Source: Sphingobacteriales bacterium (lineage in GTDB: Bacteria; Bacteroidota; Bacteroidia; Chitinophagales; CAIOSU01). Taken from it: DNA of 64,000 bases. Below the pieces are notes generated by a model. The model had not been told where the DNA came from, did no database searches, and saw nothing but the letters and a program-made list of their open reading frames with translations. Of the stretch, positions 22,832-31,032 are shown piece by piece. Both the position numbers and the translations under genes were made by a program. Positions within the stretch are counted from its first letter, which is position 1. The number at the start of each line of letters is the position of its first letter. The DNA lies in NCBI GenBank assembly GCA_027483645.1, contig JAIXUD010000010.1, forward strand, positions 1 to 64,000. The letters are read 5' to 3'.

Positions 22832-22945
22832 AGGATTGCAGATCAAGCTGTGCTAGCACACTCCCGATGGGTTTTAACAATTGTGTGGAATGTTGTTAGG
22901 CTGTTTTACGTTATAATGGCTATATTCAAATTTTATTTTCGGGCC

Positions 22946-23179
22946 ATGACAACATTAACCGTTAAAGTAACAGACCCTAAGTTTGCAGAAATGCTGGAAA
23001 AGATGCTGCGCTCCATGGAGTTTGTGGATGCTGTGGAGGTTTCTGAAGACAATTATCAACTTACCGATGGTGAGATGATGATGTTGAAAGAACGTAGGGA
23101 AGAATATCGTAAAAACCCTAGCCAAACCCGCAGTTGGGACGAAGTTCAAAAAGAACTGAAGCAGCGATATGAGTTATAG
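22946..23179 (+). CDS. Type II antitoxin (putative addiction-module component, TIGR02574-like)
   Basis: C-terminal LTDGEMMMLKERREEYRKNPSQTRSWDEVQKELKQRY motif typical of this antitoxin family. Overlaps the toxin gene by 11 nt. Start chosen at the internal ATG. Confidence 0.6.
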   Translation: MTTLTVKVTDPKFAEMLEKMLRSMEFVDAVEVSEDNYQLTDGEMMMLKERREEYRKNPSQTRSWDEVQKELKQRYEL

Positions 23180-23465
23180 TATAAGGACCATTAGCAAGGC
23201 TGAGCAAGATATCGCCTCTGCTATTGAATGGTATCTGGAAATTAGCAAAGACTTGGCTATTCGCTTTAATCAAGAATTAGATGAGATCTTTTCTAAGCTA
23301 TTGGCTTTTCCAGAGGCTTACCCTATTGTATTCTTAGATATGCGAATGTATTTGATGAAGACTTATCCTTACAAAATTTTGTATGTGATAGATGGATCGG
23401 AAATAATTATCCATGCCGTTGTTCACTACAAGATGCACCCGAATAGTTGGCAAAGAAATAGATAA
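23169..23465 (+). CDS. Type II toxin, ParE/RelE superfamily
   Basis: 98 aa, small basic protein, with YRILY-like and IIIHAVVH segments. Gene overlap with the upstream antitoxin. Confidence 0.6.
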   Translation: MSYSIRTISKAEQDIASAIEWYLEISKDLAIRFNQELDEIFSKLLAFPEAYPIVFLDMRMYLMKTYPYKILYVIDGSEIIIHAVVHYKMHPNSWQRNR

Positions 23466-23550
23466 CAACCATCCATACTTATTTGCTCGTTTTTTGAACT
23501 ACCACGCTCCCTTTGCGTTTATGTGTAAGTACATTCAAATTCGGGCATTA

Positions 23551-23583
23551 CAACTCGTAACCCGCAACCCGTAACTCGCAACC
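23551..23583. repeat. CGTAACC/CGCAACC heptad repeat copy
   Basis: caactcgtaacccgcaacccgtaactcgcaacc immediately upstream of the ATPase gene. Confidence 0.5.
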
Positions 23584-23588
23584 ATCAC

Positions 23589-25055
23589 ATGACCCAACCC
23601 CAAAACCTCGGCCAATTAAAAGCCTCCGGATATACCCCTAAAAGCATCAAACAAGAAATACGCGATAACCTGGTGGCGCGCATGAAGGCCAGCAAGCCCA
23701 TGTTTGCCGGCATTTTGGGTTACGACCAAACCGTGATACCTGATGTGCAGCGCGCCATCCTCTCTCGCCACAACATGATATTGCTGGGCCTGCGCGGGCA
23801 AGCGAAAACGCGCATAGCCCGCCTAATGGTGGACCTTTTGGACGAGTGGGTGCCCGTACTGGAAGGTAGCGAACTGAACGAAGACCCACTGCTGCCCATC
23901 ACCAAGCAGAGCTATGATAAAATAGCCGAACTAGGCGACAAAACCCCCATCACCTGGCTGCACCGCAACGATAGGTATGCCGAAAAACTGGCCACACCCG
24001 ATGTATCGGTAGCGGATTTGATTGGCGATGTGGACCCAATTAAGGCGGCCAACCTGCGCTTGAGCTATGCCGACGAAAGGGTGATACACTTCGGCTTGGT
24101 ACCGCGCAGCAACCGTTGCATCTTTGTTATCAACGAGTTGCCCGATTTGCAAGCACGTATACAAGTATCGCTGTTCAATATTTTGCAAGAGGGCGATGTA
24201 CAGATACGCGGTTTCAAACTGCGCCTGCCGCTGGATATCCAGTTTGTATTTACCGCCAACCCCGAGGATTACACCAATCGTGGTTCGATTGTAACGCCGC
24301 TAAAAGACCGTATTCAAAGCCAGATATTGACCCACTACCCTAAGGATATTGAAATATCAAAGTCCATTACCTTGCAAGAAGCCGCCATTACCAAAGAGCA
24401 GAAGGCAACGGTAGGGTATAGCGATTTGGCTCTGACCATGAACGAACAGATTGCCGTTGAAGCTCGTGGCAGTGAGTTTGTGGATGCGAAGAGTGGCGTA
24501 AGCGCCCGCTTGACTATCTCTGCTTTCGAAAACCTGTTTAGTGCTGCCGAGCGCCGCGCCATCATTAATGGGGAGGATAAAACCTTCATCCGCATGGGCG
24601 ACTTCTGGGGTATCATCCCCGCCATTACGGGTAAGATAGAGTTGGTTTATGAAGGTGAGCAAGAGGGCCCATACATAGTAGCACAAAACCTTTTGGGCAA
24701 ATCCATCCGTACGCTGTTTGCCCAGCTCTTCCCGAATCCGGAGAAGTTGCGCAAAAAGAAGGATGCCAACCCATACCAAGAAATCATTGATTGGTTCAAC
24801 ATTAATTCGCTCGACATCCTCAACGAGGTAAAGGACAAGGACTACGCCCACCGCCTATTGGCCGTGGACGGTTTGGACGACCTCGTTAAAAAATATCACC
24901 CAGCGCTAAAAGGCCCCGAGAAGCTATTTTACATGGAGTTTGTGCTGCACGGCCTAGCCGAATATAGCCTCCTCAACAAGCACCAACTAGAAACCGGCGT
25001 GCGGTTTAAAGATTTGCTAGGGGCAATGTTTGATATGAGCGGGGGTGAAAACTAG
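23589..25055 (+). CDS. AAA+ ATPase, Mg-chelatase ChlI-like / sigma-54-interaction-domain-like
   Basis: 488 aa; degenerate Walker A (LGLRGQAKT) and Walker B (CIFVINELPD). The family assignment is by resemblance only. Confidence 0.45.
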   Translation: MTQPQNLGQLKASGYTPKSIKQEIRDNLVARMKASKPMFAGILGYDQTVIPDVQRAILSRHNMILLGLRGQAKTRIARLMVDLLDEWVPVLEGSELNEDPLLPITKQSYDKIAELGDKTPITWLHRNDRYAEKLATPDVSVADLIGDVDPIKAANLRLSYADERVIHFGLVPRSNRCIFVINELPDLQARIQVSLFNILQEGDVQIRGFKLRLPLDIQFVFTANPEDYTNRGSIVTPLKDRIQSQILTHYPKDIEISKSITLQEAAITKEQKATVGYSDLALTMNEQIAVEARGSEFVDAKSGVSARLTISAFENLFSAAERRAIINGEDKTFIRMGDFWGIIPAITGKIELVYEGEQEGPYIVAQNLLGKSIRTLFAQLFPNPEKLRKKKDANPYQEIIDWFNINSLDILNEVKDKDYAHRLLAVDGLDDLVKKYHPALKGPEKLFYMEFVLHGLAEYSLLNKHQLETGVRFKDLLGAMFDMSGGEN

Positions 25056-25066
25056 ACACAAGATTT

Positions 25067-25117
25067 GAGACACAAGACACAACACTTTTTTTGCAGCTAT
25101 CTTGTGTCTTGTGTCTC
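25067..25117. terminator. Bidirectional hairpin between convergent genes (GACACAAGACAC repeat family)
   Basis: gagacacaagacacaa ... ttgtgtcttgtgtctc form a perfect 16-bp stem; the right arm overlaps the WYL-gene stop codon. Confidence 0.6.
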
Positions 25118-26123
25118 AACCCTGATACTGCTCCAGCGCCTTCATTAGCCGGTATTTAATAGACCGCGCCAAACGCGAAGGCTTCAACACCTTTACATTA
25201 TCACCAAAGCCCAGTATCTCGCGCTCGAGCTCAAAGTTGTGTTTTACCTGGATGCAGATGGTAGTGCCTGCTTCGGTTTTCGCTACAATTTCTTGGGTGG
25301 GGTGTATCGGTTTGGTGAGTACGTAGGGTGCATGGGCTGGATCAACAAGCAGGTGTACTTCCAGCACGTCGCTGCGGCTATCAGTTACCCCAATTAAATG
25401 CTTAAAATAGGTTTGCGTATCGAATAGCTCGTTCTCCATATAAGGCACAGAAGCTTTTTCTATCCCCTGTATACGGTCAAGCGCTAGGTTGAGCAGTTGA
25501 TTTCGGTGGTTGGGTGTGCCCAAAAGAAACCAGCGGTTGCGATACTGTTTTAATAGGTATGGGTGGAAAACAATATCGCCCGCCTGCCGCGCCTTGAAAC
25601 TTTGGTAAGTAATAGTAAGCGGTTGTTTATCGATAATAGCATGATACAGCACATCCAAGTGCTCCAACCCACGCAGGTCTTCGTTCTTTTCAAAATCGAT
25701 AACCGGTGTAGTGTGCGATTTGGAGGTATAAATCTGGTCTTCCAGCTTGCTCACCATCTCACTTACTCCGTTAAAGTGCGAAAAGCCTTTAAACTGTTTC
25801 AGTATATCCACCACACCATTCAGCATACCCAGGTCTTGGTCGGTAAGCGGTATGTTGCTTATGCTGTAATCGGGGTCTTCGTAAGTGTAATACTTCTTGT
25901 CGACTACAATAATAGGCGCTTTGTAGCCCAGCTTTTCGCTGCGCATCATCTGTATATCCATCTGCACGCTGCGGCGGCTGATGCCTTTATCAATTCCTTC
26001 GTACTCGTACAAGGTATCGCTACAGGCATCTATCAAATCCTCCAAAGTCCACTTACGGTAACGGTTTTGCAGGCATTTATCAATGGTTCGGTATCGGATG
26101 AGCGCATTCCTATTTACAGGCAT
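25116..26123 (-). CDS. WYL-domain transcriptional regulator (wHTH + WYL)
   Basis: N-terminus MPVNRNALIRYRTIDKCLQNRYRKWTLEDLIDACSD is the characteristic HTH of WYL regulators; about 335 aa. Start placed at the internal Met because the 40-aa upstream extension is non-conserved. Confidence 0.7.
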   Translation of the reverse strand: MPVNRNALIRYRTIDKCLQNRYRKWTLEDLIDACSDTLYEYEGIDKGISRRSVQMDIQMMRSEKLGYKAPIIVVDKKYYTYEDPDYSISNIPLTDQDLGMLNGVVDILKQFKGFSHFNGVSEMVSKLEDQIYTSKSHTTPVIDFEKNEDLRGLEHLDVLYHAIIDKQPLTITYQSFKARQAGDIVFHPYLLKQYRNRWFLLGTPNHRNQLLNLALDRIQGIEKASVPYMENELFDTQTYFKHLIGVTDSRSDVLEVHLLVDPAHAPYVLTKPIHPTQEIVAKTEAGTTICIQVKHNFELEREILGFGDNVKVLKPSRLARSIKYRLMKALEQYQG

Positions 26124-26159
26124 TTCAAACTTTTTTTGAAAAATAGTAAAAATATTTTT

Positions 26160-26198
26160 CACTGCGCAAAAAGACTGCGCACTAGCATGTAAACTTTG
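26160..26198 (+). promoter_or_regulatory. Operator-promoter motif copy 1 (ACTGCGCA-N6-CTGCGCA-N11-ACTTTG)
   Basis: cACTGCGCAaaaagaCTGCGCActagcatgtaaACTTTG; same architecture as copies 2 and 3. ACTTTG fits the Bacteroidetes -7 TAnnTTTG element. Confidence 0.6.
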
Positions 26199-26226
26199 CA
26201 TCGTTAATAAGAAAAAACACATCGTT

Positions 26227-26373
26227 ATGTCATCATTTATCAAACATCAGTTGGACGGTAATAAGAAGCAGCAAGGTAACTTGGGTATAGCCTATATAGG
26301 CAGCCTCGGCATGCCGGGACTGCGCCCCGACCAAAGCAGTGAGACAAAACGAGATTGTAGCCGGAAGGTATAG
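26227..26373 (+). CDS. Small ORF (48 aa) or sRNA driven by motif copy 1
   Basis: ATG 29 nt after TTTG with an A-rich leader; ORF MSSFIKHQLDGNKKQQGNLGIAYIGSLGMPGLRPDQSSETKRDCSRKV; followed by a strong terminator. Coding status is uncertain. Confidence 0.3.
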   Translation: MSSFIKHQLDGNKKQQGNLGIAYIGSLGMPGLRPDQSSETKRDCSRKV

Positions 26374-26400
26374 CATCATAATTACACCGTAGTTATATGT

Positions 26401-26434
26401 AAGCCCTGGCCATCTCGCCGGGGCTTTTCTTTTG
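26401..26434 (+). terminator. Rho-independent terminator (plus strand)
   Basis: aagccctggc-catctc-gccggggctt 10-bp stem, then ttcttttg. Confidence 0.75.
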
Positions 26435-26479: not shown

Positions 26480-26589
26480 GTATTCGTAGCTCAAGTGTTA
26501 GAGCCACCCACTTTTAATGGGTGAGTTATAGGTTCGAACGGCGAAGCCCTCACTGAGCTTTTTGCGAAGTAGTCCTATCGGGTACACCA
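26480..26589 (+). ncRNA. tRNA-like gene (Lys-like, anticodon TTT) with a 34-nt insertion in the T-loop and an encoded CCA
   Basis: Acceptor gtattcg/cgggtac (two G-U pairs), D-arm gctc-aagtgtta-gagc, anticodon arm accca-cttttaa-tgggt, T-stem atagg...cctat. The T-loop reads ttcgaac and is followed by the insert ggcgaagccctcactgagctttttgcgaagtagt. The 3' end is ACCA. Confidence 0.55.
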
Positions 26590-26674
26590 ATATGGGCATT
26601 GCCTTAGGGTGGGCTATGCCCAAGCTACCCGCCATCGGCTTTAGCGTGCCGATGGCGGTGGCACCAAGAATTAA

Positions 26675-26746
26675 CTGGAGGGATAACGGTGGTTGTTTAC
26701 TCGCTTTGGAAGCGAGTGGTCGCAGGTTCAAATCCTGCCCTCCAGA
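26675..26746 (+). tRNA. tRNA-Pro (anticodon TGG)
   Basis: C1-G72 acceptor ctggagg/cctccag, anticodon arm ctcgc-tttggaa-gcgag, T-arm gcagg-ttcaaat-cctgc. Confidence 0.75.
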
Positions 26747-26924
26747 CAAAAACTCCTAACCAACAAGTTGAGGAGGAAAGAGCTTGCTTGTGGCACCACT
26801 GGCGCTAGTGGTTGGTGGTGTGCAAACGGGAGTGGTTGAAGCCCACGGTTCCGACACTAAGCAGGAACAACGTTCGAAAAAGCCCATTTGACGGCCAACG
26901 GGCAAGCTCTTTCAAAGCATAACA

Positions 26925-26996
26925 GGAACCGTAGTTCAGCGGTAGAATCCCCGACTGTCTATCGGGTGGTCACGGGTTCGAATCCCGTCGGTTCCG
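26925..26996 (+). tRNA. tRNA-Asp (anticodon GTC)
   Basis: ggaaccg/cggttcc acceptor, anticodon arm cccga-ctgtcta-tcggg, T-arm acggg-ttcgaat-cccgt. Confidence 0.85.
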
Positions 26997-27000
26997 CTTT

Positions 27001-27096
27001 AGGCCTGTAGCCCAACGGCAGAGGCACCAGATTTAGGATCTGGACAGTGTGGGTTCGAACGGCGAAGCCCTCGTGCCAACACTCCCACCAGGCCCA
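27001..27096 (+). ncRNA. tRNA-like gene (anticodon TAG, class-I shape) with a 23-nt T-loop insertion
   Basis: Acceptor aggcctg/caggccc, anticodon arm ccaga-tttagga-tctgg, 5-nt variable loop, T-stem gtggg...cccac. The T-loop ttcgaac is followed by the insert ggcgaagccctcgtgccaacact, sharing its first 12 nt with the 26480 element. Confidence 0.55.
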
Positions 27097-27104
27097 CAAA
27101 TTAT

Positions 27105-27177
27105 TGGATGGTAGTTCAATTGGAAAGAGCATCGGGCTACGAACCCGAAGATGCAGGTTCGACTCCTGCCCATCCAA
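27105..27177 (+). tRNA. tRNA-Arg (anticodon ACG)
   Basis: Acceptor tggatgg/ccatcca, D-arm gttc-aattggaaa-gagc, anticodon arm tcggg-ctacgaa-cccga, T-arm gcagg-ttcgact-cctgc. Confidence 0.8.
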
Positions 27178-27188
27178 CTAACAAAAAG

Positions 27189-27403
27189 GGCGTCATTGCG
27201 AAGGCCTACTAGGTCTTGCAGTTCGAGCTAAACTTTAATGGCCTGAAGCAATCCCCCGACGAGGGGAGTGAATCGCATAGACCACTAAAGTGATGGTATT
27301 ATGTACTTGGTTCTGCGGTAAGCACAAACTATGCTCCGTAGCAGGGGATTGCTTCGTCGTTCAATTGCGCGAAAGGCGCAAATTGACTCCTCGCAATGAC
27401 GGC
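27189..27403 (+). ncRNA. Unclassified highly structured RNA candidate (about 215 nt) embedded in the tRNA array
   Basis: Closing helix gcgtcattgcgaagg / cctcgcaatgacggc. Nested helices gaagcaatcccc / ggggattgcttc and gcatag / ctatgc. Hairpins tcccccgacgagggga and ttgcgc-gaaag-gcgcaa. Confidence 0.45.
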
Positions 27404-27427
27404 TAGGGATTGGAGGTGATGTTAAAT

Positions 27428-27499
27428 TGTCTGGTGGTCTAATGGTTAGGATACTTCGTTTTGGAAGAAGTGGTGGTGGTTCGAATCCATCCCGGACAA
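27428..27499 (+). tRNA. tRNA-Gln (anticodon TTG)
   Basis: U1-A72 acceptor tgtctgg/ccggaca, anticodon loop ttTTGga, T-arm ggtgg-ttcgaat-ccatc, 4-nt variable loop. Confidence 0.7.
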
Positions 27500-27539
27500 C
27501 AAAAAATGAAAAAGTTGAAAATAAATTTTACTGCGCAAC

Positions 27540-27577
27540 AACGCTGCGCACCAGCGTTTCAACTTTGACATATTGTT
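27540..27577 (+). promoter_or_regulatory. Operator-promoter motif copy 2
   Basis: tACTGCGCAacaacgCTGCGCAccagcgtttcaACTTTG; spacing identical to copies 1 and 3. Confidence 0.6.
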
Positions 27578-27590
27578 ATTTGAAATCAAT

Positions 27591-27790
27591 ACTCCTCTAG
27601 CTTAAAAGGAAGAGCTGTGGTAAAAGTTACGGAACCATGTAGTGCCGGGATGATGCCTATAGAATCTCGCATTTTATAGGCTAGAATTTGCAGATGCACC
27701 GAAACACCGCTCTATAGAAGTGTAGTAGGGAAGCGCATTTATAGCCCGGCTGCCCTCGCGGGAGTCTCGGTTCGAGTCCGGGGAGGAGTG
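27591..27790 (+). ncRNA. 200-nt tRNA-like RNA with acceptor stem and canonical T-arm but about 150 nt replacing the anticodon region
   Basis: 5' actcctc pairs with 3' gaggagt. T-arm ctcgg-ttcgagt-ccggg sits directly before the 3' acceptor strand, and an agct...agct D-like stem follows the 5' strand. Internal helices include gcctata/tataggc and gccggg/cccggc. Begins about 15 nt after motif copy 2. Confidence 0.45.
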
Positions 27791-27796
27791 CGATTA

Positions 27797-27867
27797 GCAC
27801 CAGTAGCTTAATGGCAAAGCCCCTGTTTACCAAACAGGCAACGCAGGTTCGATTCCTGCTTGGTGCT
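27797..27867 (+). tRNA. tRNA with atypical anticodon ACC (Gly-like), 4-nt variable loop
   Basis: Acceptor gcaccag/ttggtgc, D-arm gctt-aatggca-aagc, anticodon arm cctgt-ttACCaa-acagg, T-arm gcagg-ttcgatt-cctgc. An A34 anticodon is unusual in bacteria outside Arg. Confidence 0.55.
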
Positions 27868-28005
27868 CAGTTAATGGTCGATTTGTGTAAGACCTGATCA
27901 GGGTTTCAAAATGGCCCGGTAGTGTTGCCACGCCCTGCGTTGCAATATGCTGCTTATCATTTTGGCATTAACTACCATGCTGTTTTTTGAAACAGTTTTG
28001 GAAGC

Positions 28006-28082
28006 GTGGGTTCGAATCCCACCATGCGTACACGCATGTGGCTCAGTGGTTAGAGCATGTTTTGGGCTCATAATCCAAACAT
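28006..28082 (+). ncRNA. Permuted-looking Met-like tRNA element: 3' half (T-arm + acceptor 3' strand) immediately upstream of the 5' half (acceptor 5' strand, D-arm, CAT anticodon arm)
   Basis: The 3' half gtggg-ttcgaat-cccac-catgcgt-a is followed 1 nt later by the 5' half acgcatg-tg-gctc-agtggtta-gagc. The anticodon stem is extended (atgttt/aaacat plus ggg/tcc) with loop CTCATAA, the Met/initiator-type loop. The two acceptor strands are exact complements. Confidence 0.4.
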
Positions 28083-28470
28083 TTCCCAAAAGTTGATCAC
28101 TTGTAAAAATGATCGCAGGAAAGTAGCGGCGGTGTCCTGGCCTTGCCATTATGGTTCGCCATAAAACCCAGGCAGTTGGACAGCGACCTGAAAAAGGAGG
28201 ATACCGTTGCAACAAGTTCGTTGGCTTTGCCCGGTAAAGGGATTTCTATAAATCGAGTATCAAAAGGGCCTCGAATTAACGAAACACCCACTGTGCAAAC
28301 CCGGCAAACACGTTCAGCTCAATCCGGCTTCCATTGTTGGAAGATGGGGCATCGGCGCTGCTTTCTATTTTTTTTGAAACGTATTTGAAAACCCGAAACG
28401 TGTAAGTCCCTCTCCCCTTGGGAGAGGCTAGGTGAGGGTTGAATTATAACAAGCATTAAAACACACAATT

Positions 28471-29574
28471 ATGTTCAACACAAGAATCAACGAAGGAACA
28501 GTAGGTATCGTTACCAAGTACGGCAACTATAACAGGATAGTATCGGCAGGTACTTTCTGGGCAATGTTCAATGAGCAGGTGGAAACCTACAACGTGGATA
28601 CGCTGTATGGCGCTTTCCCTAAGCTCGACATTATGCTGAAAGACGAGCGTTTCCGCGCCATGGTAGAAGTACTGGAAGTAAAGGATAACGAGATTGCCTT
28701 GCAGTTTGTAAACGGCAACTTTGTGAGCATACTGAAGCCAGGTCGGTACTTCTACTTTAAAGGCTACGCCAACATCAAGTTTGTGGTGGTAAACCTGGGC
28801 AAGGTAGAGATTACCGAAGGCATCGATATGGCGGTACTGTTAAGGTCGGAGGTGGCGCACTATATCCGCGCCTTCTCGGTGCTGCCTTACGAGGAAGGCC
28901 TGCTGTTTGTGGATGGTAAATTCCAAAGGAAGCTGACCAAGGGTACCTACTACTTCTGGAAGAACCCCATCACCATTGAGGTGTTGAAGGCGGATATGAG
29001 GCAGTTGCAAATGGAAATCTCCGGTCAGGAAATCTTGACCATGGATAAAGCCGCACTGCGTGTAAACTTCTATGCCCAATACCGAGTGGTGGATACCGAA
29101 GTGGCCTTGCTGAACAACAAAGACTTCGAGAAGCAATTGTACATACTGGTGCAGTTGGCCTTGAGGGAATTTGTGGGCACCAAAACCCTGGATGAGTTGC
29201 TGGAAAACAAAGACTCCGTGGGCCAGTTTGTAGCCGATGCGCTGAAAGGCAAAGCGGCCAAGCTGGGCGTAGAGATTGTGAACAGCGGCATCAGGGACGT
29301 GATACTGCCAGGTGAAGTGAAGGAGATTATGAACCAAGTATTGGTGGCCCAAAAACAGGCCCAGGCCAACACCATTACCCGTAGGGAGGAGACAGCTTCT
29401 ACTAGGAGCTTGTTGAACACCGCCAAACTGATGGAGGACAACGAAATGTTGTTCAAACTGAAGGAGATGGAGTACGTGGAGAAAATCGCTGCGAAAATAG
29501 GTGAGATTACCGTATCGGGCAATGGCCAGGTGTTGGACCAGTTGAGGGACATTTTTTCGGCGAAATCAAAATAA
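28471..29574 (+). CDS. SPFH/Band-7 (stomatin-prohibitin-like) domain protein
   Basis: 367 aa with an SPFH-like core and a C-terminal coiled region; the family call is from overall resemblance. Confidence 0.6.
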   Translation: MFNTRINEGTVGIVTKYGNYNRIVSAGTFWAMFNEQVETYNVDTLYGAFPKLDIMLKDERFRAMVEVLEVKDNEIALQFVNGNFVSILKPGRYFYFKGYANIKFVVVNLGKVEITEGIDMAVLLRSEVAHYIRAFSVLPYEEGLLFVDGKFQRKLTKGTYYFWKNPITIEVLKADMRQLQMEISGQEILTMDKAALRVNFYAQYRVVDTEVALLNNKDFEKQLYILVQLALREFVGTKTLDELLENKDSVGQFVADALKGKAAKLGVEIVNSGIRDVILPGEVKEIMNQVLVAQKQAQANTITRREETASTRSLLNTAKLMEDNEMLFKLKEMEYVEKIAAKIGEITVSGNGQVLDQLRDIFSAKSK

Positions 29575-29589
29575 TTAAACAAAAGTTTG

Positions 29590-29627
29590 CACTGCGCAAC
29601 AACACTGCGCAGTGCATCTTTTACTTT
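29590..29627 (+). promoter_or_regulatory. Operator-promoter motif copy 3 (immediately upstream of rtcB)
   Basis: cACTGCGCAacaacaCTGCGCAgtgcatcttttACTTTG; the rtcB ATG is 23 nt downstream of TTTG. Confidence 0.65.
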
Positions 29628-29643
29628 GTATTGTCAATGATAA

Positions 29644-31032
<1,389 letters not shown>

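Follow-up and report, generated by a model that had tools for sequence, protein, structure and literature searches.

The structured element of about 215 nt found within a tRNA array (positions 27189–27403 of the window, the 64-kb stretch of DNA analyzed) is, most likely, not a new RNA gene but a repeat element transcribed along with the tRNAs. It is a putative composite head-to-head dimer of Ssn-type repeat units. We consider it probable that it represents a copy of a composite palindromic DNA repeat of the CGTC-REP/SRM kind and that its fold as RNA follows incidentally from the palindrome. Repeats of this kind are known; the variant lies outside the published motif and Rfam.

The window is a part of a Bacteroidota chromosome and starts with tRNA-Thr, an ORF, and tRNA-Trp, followed by long ORFs. 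The ORF between these two tRNA genes presumably occupies the usual place of tuf, and the following long ORFs that of secE to rpoBC. The tRNA array (about 26480–28400) is bounded on one side by a divergently oriented WYL/WCX regulator gene (25116–26243, minus strand) and on the other by a Band-7/SPFH gene with rtcB after it (28471–31032). The encoded RtcB is 69%–72% identical to proteins of Flavobacteriales and Saprospiraceae, and same-strand tRNA arrays were present near rtcB in many of 80 genomes with a related rtcB. As described in the initial annotation, the element lies between tRNA-Arg(ACG) (27105–27178) and tRNA-Gln(UUG) (27428–27500) of the same-strand array, while the spacers between other tRNAs of this array and of related arrays consist of a few bases only. 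No terminator-like site adjoins the element. Given this and the same-strand array, the element is probably co-transcribed with the tRNAs, and its release by tRNA-processing enzymes, as candidate, is plausible.

The element was confirmed to be strongly folded, with pairing far beyond chance (z = -5.5). The minimum free energy (MFE) of the plus strand was -85.6 kcal/mol, compared to -62.3 ± 4.3 kcal/mol for 200 dinucleotide shuffles, none of which was as stable (0/200, z = -5.47). The reverse strand was equal in this respect (-81.7 kcal/mol, z = -5.56). G-U pairs were scarce, comprising 6 of 72 pairs on the plus strand and 5 of 74 on the opposite strand. Such a strand-equal fold with few G-U pairs does not indicate the transcribed strand and is what a DNA palindrome gives.

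The terminal helix reported initially corresponds to the outer helix P1, a perfect 11-bp pairing of 27191–27201 (CGTCATTGCGA) with 27391–27401 (TCGCAATGACG; inverted repeat I9, 11/11 complementary) that is lengthened by flanking pairs. The nested long-range helix was likewise found: the inner helix P3 is formed by 27245–27256 (GAAGCAATCCCC) and 27344–27355 (GGGGATTGCTTC), two strands complementary at 12 of 12 positions (inverted repeat I6) and separated by 87 nt. Both P1 and P3 consist exclusively of Watson-Crick pairs. The MFE fold also contains two variable side hairpins, P2 at 27202–27244 and P4 at about 27361–27387, the latter being the hairpin with the GAAAG loop noticed earlier. The 87-nt inner domain (27257–27343) is a divergent member of a group designated type A. 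All these coordinates refer to the plus strand. Rfam 15 covariance models (among them RNase P, 6S, SRP, tmRNA, ribozymes, and YrlA) gave no match over 27189–27403, whether the gathering score or E ≤ 10 was applied; no RNase P, 6S, SRP, or tmRNA pattern had been recognized by eye in the initial annotation either. Interpretations as a group I intron, ribozyme, tmRNA, Y RNA, or interrupted tRNA were dropped, since flanking tRNA halves, a T-loop, and model matches were all absent.

P1 and P3 delimit two repeat units, or half-sites. The left unit (27191–27257, plus strand) comprises a CGTC tag (27191–27194), ATTGCGAAGG, a variable hairpin, CCTGAAGCAAT, and a CCCC tail, in the same order as in the units located beside GIY-YIG genes at the metagenomic loci L102, L145, and L089. 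The right unit (27344–27401, minus strand) is inverted and placed head-to-head with the left one; its minus-strand reading is CGTCATTGCGAGGAG, a hairpin, and ACGACGAAGCAATCCCC. Both half-sites fold with five unpaired nucleotides including CGTC, an ATTGC/GCAAT stem, and a CCCC tail. Folded alone, the left unit shows the tag, this stem, a distal hairpin, and the tail; the basal stem of a single unit is 5 bp long and is followed by internal loops and a distal hairpin of 25–40 nt. As isolated ssDNA, neither the left unit (z = 0.16) nor the right one (z = -1.5, not significant) was more stable than shuffles. The general scheme of a unit can thus be proposed as CGTC-ATTGCGAGG-[variable hairpin]-GAAGCAAT-CCCC, two such units being inverted and set head to head around the 87-nt inner segment. 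The CGTC tag, the stem opening with A-T and T-A pairs, and the C-rich tail together constitute the signature of the CGTC-tagged REP superfamily.

The same arrangement was widespread in metagenomes. Contigs were scanned with the pattern GAAGCAATCCCC-N(75-105)-GGGGATTGCTTC, i.e., with both 12-mers of P3 alone, and 116 matches were obtained in 106 loci, while by our own estimate the chance expectation for 24 specified bases is well under one match. The element itself fits this pattern by construction, its P3 being the search pattern. The outer-helix sequence CGTCATTGCGAGG/CCTCGCAATGACG is common to these loci and the element, and the unsearched outer strands CGTCATTGCGAG(G) and (C)CTCGCAATGACG were found both in the element and in the flanks of the metagenomic matches. 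The exact 8-mers CATTGCGA and TCGCAATG were both present beside 51 of 87 matches, with tandem simple hairpins left out. The four-arm layout was repeated in the metagenomic matches, and the sequence of the side hairpins varied from copy to copy, P2 being different in every family member. A profile built with nhmmer from 23 metagenomic type A elements matched the window only at 27243–27401, with E = 2.2e-13 on the plus strand versus 8.2e-08 on the other strand; this score is partly circular, because the loci had been selected by the 12-mers, and the shared P1 is the independent evidence. The element therefore belongs to this family.

Members of the family occur in contigs with a G+C content from 31% to 71%, and some hosts carry several copies per genome (JAESFZ01 contigs). 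Tandem copies with a period of about 200–215 nt were found in L089 (three), L104 (two), and L184 (three). The units were also found single and nested as well as in tandem, and a simple form of about 80 nt consists of two units around a small loop. The latter was located between convergent genes in Methylosinus trichosporium and Methylocystis plasmids, and blastn searches with the family consensus gave matches on Methylocystaceae plasmids. A degenerate copy is present just upstream of rtcB in Winogradskyella. Only one tRNA gene was found in 616 kb of family loci, so the repeat family is not linked to tRNA arrays. Blastn searches (word 11) of the element against phage and plasmid collections gave no match, viral contigs scanned with the P3 pattern contained none, Rfam searches of the repeat in 20 family loci found nothing, and a full-text search of the literature for the motif strings yielded unrelated primers only.

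The inner domain of the element, aligned globally with other inner domains, was weakly similar to them (z ≤ 3.3). The type A alignment contained no G-U pair in P3, and RNAalifold applied to 20 type A inner domains on both strands found no consensus structure outside P3. Conserved blocks of type A inner domains are GTCAAG/GTAAAG, GTTATCC, GCATTTCATAGGGA, and GTGCATTTCATWGGGA; they are carried, among others, by L088, L112, L125, L165, L178, L181, and L187. The opposite strand of many type A inner domains contains a 6-codon frame ATG AAA TGC ACN NNN GGA TAA.

In the loci examined, the only recurrent neighbor of the repeat was a gene encoding a GIY-YIG protein. Such single-domain genes, 95–99 aa in size, were flanked by repeats in 8 of the 106 loci (0.62 Mb), namely L102, L145, L089, L184, L086, L138, L106, and L120, whereas 1.17 Mb of Bacteroidota control loci contained none. 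One to three type A composites were located directly upstream of the GIY-YIG gene in a single orientation in all four of L089, L184, L086, and L138, and this orientation is that of the element on the plus strand. In L086 and L138, a further composite begins just after the gene. Since repeats flank GIY-YIG genes, the family has an SRM-ssn-SRM architecture. The flanking proteins matched Pfam PF01541 only, and searches of NCBIfam and PDB sequences gave nothing specific to the Ssn clade (cd10448). No GIY-YIG ORF is present in the 64-kb window, and neither a GIY-YIG gene nor a second copy of the repeat was found in the window and about 50 kb of the flanks in relatives. Over the 64-kb window and these flanks the element looks low-copy in this lineage, and this is what speaks most strongly against regarding it purely as a selfish repeat.

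The closest described counterparts are the targets of Ssn nucleases, a family of single-domain GIY-YIG enzymes of about 94 aa (Chenal et al. 2025, Nat Commun, PMC11893778). These enzymes bind a hairpin and cut just upstream of it, acting on ssDNA only and on one strand only; the NTS of Neisseria (CGTCATTCCCGCGMAVGCGGGAATCYRG) and related SRM hairpins flank ssn genes (PMC11893778). Like NTS/SRM, the units of the new family have an unpaired CGTC, an ATT... strand closing with ...AAT, and a CC tail, CGTCATT-CCCGCG..GCGGG-AATCC in NTS/SRM corresponding to CGTCATT-GCGAGG..CGAAGC-AATCC in the family. Like SRM, the family flanks small single-domain GIY-YIG genes on both sides, is multi-copy, and crosses phyla. 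However, the family unit is the longer one; its basal stem measures 5 bp, and a variable hairpin is inserted. Two such units around an inner domain of 75–105 nt give a four-arm element, about 200 nt in size, which is found in tandem arrays as well. Moreover, unlike the SRM-ssn loci, the window has no ssn gene within its 64 kb around the element. The published SRM motif, HGTCWYN(0-2)YYVSBRHN(0-5)WNVSBRGN(0-2)RNCYNB, matched NTS used as a positive control and had no match in the element, the window, or three consensus units of the family.

CGTC-tagged REPs have stems of 8–9 bp and loops of 4–5 nt (Di Nocera, De Gregorio, Rocco 2013, BMC Genomics, PMC3733652). They include dRS3 of Neisseria and RPE-4/6 of Rickettsia, mostly form head-to-head dimers, and are extragenic and transposase-free, being found in Bacteroidetes among other phyla (PMC3733652). 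The element shares with them the CGTC tag, the A-T and T-A pairs opening the stem, the short C-rich tail, and the head-to-head dimer, and its family is likewise extragenic and has no dedicated transposase. On the contrary, its units lack the compact hairpin with a stem of 8–9 bp and a loop of 4–5 nt. As to copy number, many family copies are carried by other genomes, whereas the 64-kb window contains one. Neither PMC11893778 nor PMC3733652 describes composites that enclose an inner domain or tandem arrays of such composites. Similarity to REPINs/BIMEs consists in two inverted units giving one long hairpin as the repeated unit, in clustering, and in the flanking of a single small nuclease-type gene. 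However, REPINs/BIMEs are tagged with GTAG and associated with a RAYT (HUH/Y1) transposase, while the family of the element has a CGTC tag and a GIY-YIG gene; in addition, REPINs are species-specific, while the unit sequence of the family is common across phyla.

By analogy with these systems, the hairpin-forming repeats could be recognized as ssDNA by nucleases of the Ssn family, which are small and have GIY-YIG as their single domain. The conserved strands would then be kept by the protein reading them, the candidate being a nuclease of the Ssn type that acts on ssDNA in the course of replication, repair, or DNA uptake, and the element would have spread or would persist as DNA. Within the tRNA array, it would be transcribed together with the tRNAs, and cleavage by RNase P at tRNA-Gln plus 3' processing at tRNA-Arg would set it free as a fragment about 250 nt long.

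Comparison with orthologous arrays shows which parts of the element are maintained. Five related loci were found via the RtcB and WYL proteins: L081 (RtcB 79% identical) and L191–L194 (WYL 92%–84% identical). The interval from the WYL gene through the array to the Band-7 gene is complete in L081 and L192; L191, L193, and L194 end inside the array, and L191 stops before the slot upstream of tRNA-Gln. The arrays are colinear with that of the window and differ in tRNA content. The slot is polymorphic: it is occupied by an orthologue of the element in L193 and L194, by an unrelated 77-nt hairpin spacer in L192, and by an 85-nt degenerate tRNA-like sequence in L081, the element being missing in two of the four informative arrays.

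In the three-way alignment of the window, L193, and L194, P1 was 100% paired, with 11 of 12 pairs unvarying, and the P3 core GCAATC/GATTGC was invariant. The AA/UU pairs of P3 were lost in L193 and L194 and not compensated, the 3' strand having decayed to ..ATTGCCAC. P2 was swapped for a different hairpin in L193, where three of five pairs were changed on both sides. P4 was swapped for other hairpins in the orthologues, with four of nine pairs changed on both sides; its place is held by the unrelated hairpins GGGGCAA...TTGCCCC (L193) and GGCCAA...TTGGCC (L194). The inner domain is homologous to that of the L193 copy, and its pairings were not kept, only 55%–73% of the cells in its helices being paired in the orthologue alignment. 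The conservation of pairing in relatives, which the initial annotation had named as the test of the structured-RNA interpretation, was therefore partial: P1 and the P3 core were preserved, by sequence invariance and not by covariation, while P2 and P4 were swapped and the helices of the inner domain were mostly broken. P1 and GAAGCAATCC are 100% identical in the three diverged lineages, while the adjoining spacers are unalignable, which indicates a constraint on sequence at this locus. Such invariance would be more in line with protein recognition, or with conversion by other copies, than with selection acting on an RNA fold; the constraint on P1 and GAAGCAATCC could equally reflect a role at the RNA level.

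There is also an alternative to the repeat by-product interpretation. The type A four-arm composite of about 200 nt may be a functional structured nucleic acid, either a cis-regulatory RNA or an ssDNA scaffold for the adjacent ssn gene, with the solo copy kept in the RtcB-linked array for an RNA role. That P1 and GAAGCAATCC do not vary between the three diverged lineages, beside spacers that cannot be aligned, is compatible with this possibility, which we nevertheless regard as unlikely.

It is quite unlikely that the element is a dedicated structured noncoding RNA of the RtcB-linked array, which RNase P and RNase Z would release from the tRNA transcript as a stable RNA, e.g., a substrate, decoy, or scaffold for the RNA-repair system encoded downstream. 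Such an RNA would be consistent with the location on the strand of the array next to no terminator-like site, with the presence of other non-tRNA structured RNAs in the locus (a YrlA-like module and a tRNA-like RNA with a 128-nt insertion), and with the retention of the element at one slot in three lineages with an invariant P1. The phage T4 species 1 and 2 RNAs are stable non-tRNA RNAs encoded in a tRNA cluster. They resemble this model in being co-transcribed with tRNAs and freed by tRNA-processing enzymes, but have no sequence or family kinship with the element, whose conserved parts belong to a DNA repeat family unrelated to tRNA clusters. Indeed, these parts are repeat motifs of more than 100 loci without tRNAs or rtcB. 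No sequence homologue of the element was found by nhmmer in the 80 genomic rtcB loci (0/80), and it is missing from L081 and L192. The broken inner-domain pairings in the orthologues, the uncompensated decay of P3, and the absence of strand asymmetry also argue against this model. Thus, what stands of the original structured-RNA reading is the pairing far beyond chance, the plausible co-transcription and release, and the unclassified status of the element as an RNA, with no Rfam match either at its own position or in the 20 family loci. The further claim of a dedicated RNA of the array is unsupported because P1 and P3 belong to an interspersed palindromic family of more than 100 metagenomic loci that is almost tRNA-free and linked to GIY-YIG genes.

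A copy of the repeat could also have been co-opted in cis as an RNA processing or insulating element between the tRNAs, for example, to be cleaved by RNase III or RNase E or to stop 3' exonucleases. REP-type hairpins can act as RNA elements downstream of genes (PMC3733652), and the slot before tRNA-Gln always carries a hairpin-forming insert, i.e., an element of this family in three arrays, another hairpin in L192, and the degenerate tRNA-like sequence in L081. However, other inter-tRNA spacers are only a few bases long, so such an element is not generally needed, and the invariance of P1, as opposed to covariation, suggests sequence-specific recognition. We therefore consider cis co-option rather improbable as well.

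A classical MITE, derived by deletion from an insertion sequence with a transposase gene and mobilized via 13-bp terminal inverted repeats, would share with the element the terminal inverted repeats, a size near 200 bp, the interspersed multi-copy distribution elsewhere, and the presence/absence polymorphism. Such an origin is very unlikely, since no transposase gene was linked to the repeat in the loci examined, where the GIY-YIG gene is the only recurrent neighbor, and no direct repeat corresponding to a target-site duplication is visible around the element. Moreover, the units occur single, nested, and in tandem, like REP/BIME clusters, and CGTC-REPs are reported to be transposase-free (PMC3733652). 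Finally, chance complementarity in an ordinary spacer is refuted by the z-score of -5.5, by the absence of equally stable sequences among 200 shuffles, and by motifs common to 106 loci.

With the palindromic repeat as the preferred interpretation, the most striking fold of the array is assigned to a DNA palindrome family, and a false lead is removed; the element should therefore not be counted as a new RNA class. The CGTCATTGCGAG...GAAGCAATCC variant itself extends the Ssn/SRM system, being widespread in genomes with 31%–71% G+C and surrounding GIY-YIG genes with composites about 200 nt in size and with tandem arrays. Since it escapes the published SRM motif, SRM censuses may undercount such repeats. 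The variant also offers more candidate nuclease/target pairs for ssDNA tools. Other unusual RNAs of the WYL-array-Band7-RtcB locus merit attention above this element.

One of them, at 27591–27791 (plus strand), is a tRNA-like RNA with a 128-nt insertion at position 37/38, identified as tRNA(AAA) by ARAGORN with introns allowed. It is conserved beside rtcB in three Flavobacteriia genomes (L022, 12044–12249; L046, 4789–4983; L028, 4353–4613), with an invariant core TAGAATTTGCAGAAGCACCGAAA ... AGTAGGGAAGCGCATTT. Compensatory changes were observed in the acceptor stem, in an internal helix (GCCGGG/CCCGGC versus GATTGG/CCAATC), and in the extra-arm hairpin. It had no Rfam match and was absent from L081 and L192–L194. 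With these features, it has the look of a structured RNA family that is linked to RtcB and has not been described before.

The conserved non-coding stretch 27869–28470 contains a "permuted" tRNA-like module at 28005–28056 (plus strand), composed of a T-arm, an acceptor hairpin with a 4-nt loop, and a D-arm. It aligned with positions 30–81 of the 114-position Rfam model YrlA (Y RNA-like) with 33.7 bits (E = 1.5e-05), which is below the gathering score of 69. Two YrlA-like modules are present in tandem in L081 (8362–8470). The location of such a module by rtcB recalls the Salmonella operon rsr-yrlBA-rtcBA, and no Ro60/Rsr gene was found near the module in the window. Another non-tRNA structured element, about 138 nt in size, lies between tRNA-Pro and tRNA-Asp (26776–26913, plus strand) and has a perfect 12-bp closing helix (I4). 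It is conserved in L081, L192, L193, and L194 in blocks that are 77%–90% identical and had no match in Rfam.

Two tRNA-like genes of the array, at 26483–26590 (anticodon TTT) and 27001–27095 (anticodon TAG), carry T-loop insertions of about 23 or 35 nt. The insertions start with CGGCGAAGCCCTC directly after GGTTCGAA (GGTTCA in L193) and contain a GCGAAGC mini-hairpin. Their hosts are the Lys-like and Leu(TAG)-like tRNAs in the window, an orthologue with a CAT anticodon in L193, the second Pro-like tRNA in L192, and tRNA-Pro(TGG) in L194; the counterparts of these tRNAs in L081 are intact. The pattern resembles that of a small insertion, mobile or intron-like, with the T-loop as its target, beside an RNA ligase gene.

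In many rtcB loci of the 80 Bacteroidota genomes (L001–L080), as many as 17 tRNA genes form an array on the same strand as rtcB. Unusual tRNAs are among them, such as short (74–75 nt) tRNA-Leu(TAG), tRNA-Tyr(ATA), tRNA-Asp(ATC), tRNA-Gly(ACC), and suppressor-like calls, and gaps of 100–1,000 nt in these arrays could hide further structured RNAs. Upstream of the array in the window, the region 26260–26430 (plus strand) has a terminator-like hairpin with a T-run at 26401–26426 and a counterpart at the same place in L081; this may point to a small transcript of its own in the interval from the WYL gene to the array. On the far side of the WYL gene (22850–25055), a ParE-toxin/antitoxin pair and a 488-aa AAA_5 (MoxR/McrB-like) ATPase are encoded, and these genes may be a part of one conflict or repair island together with the array locus.
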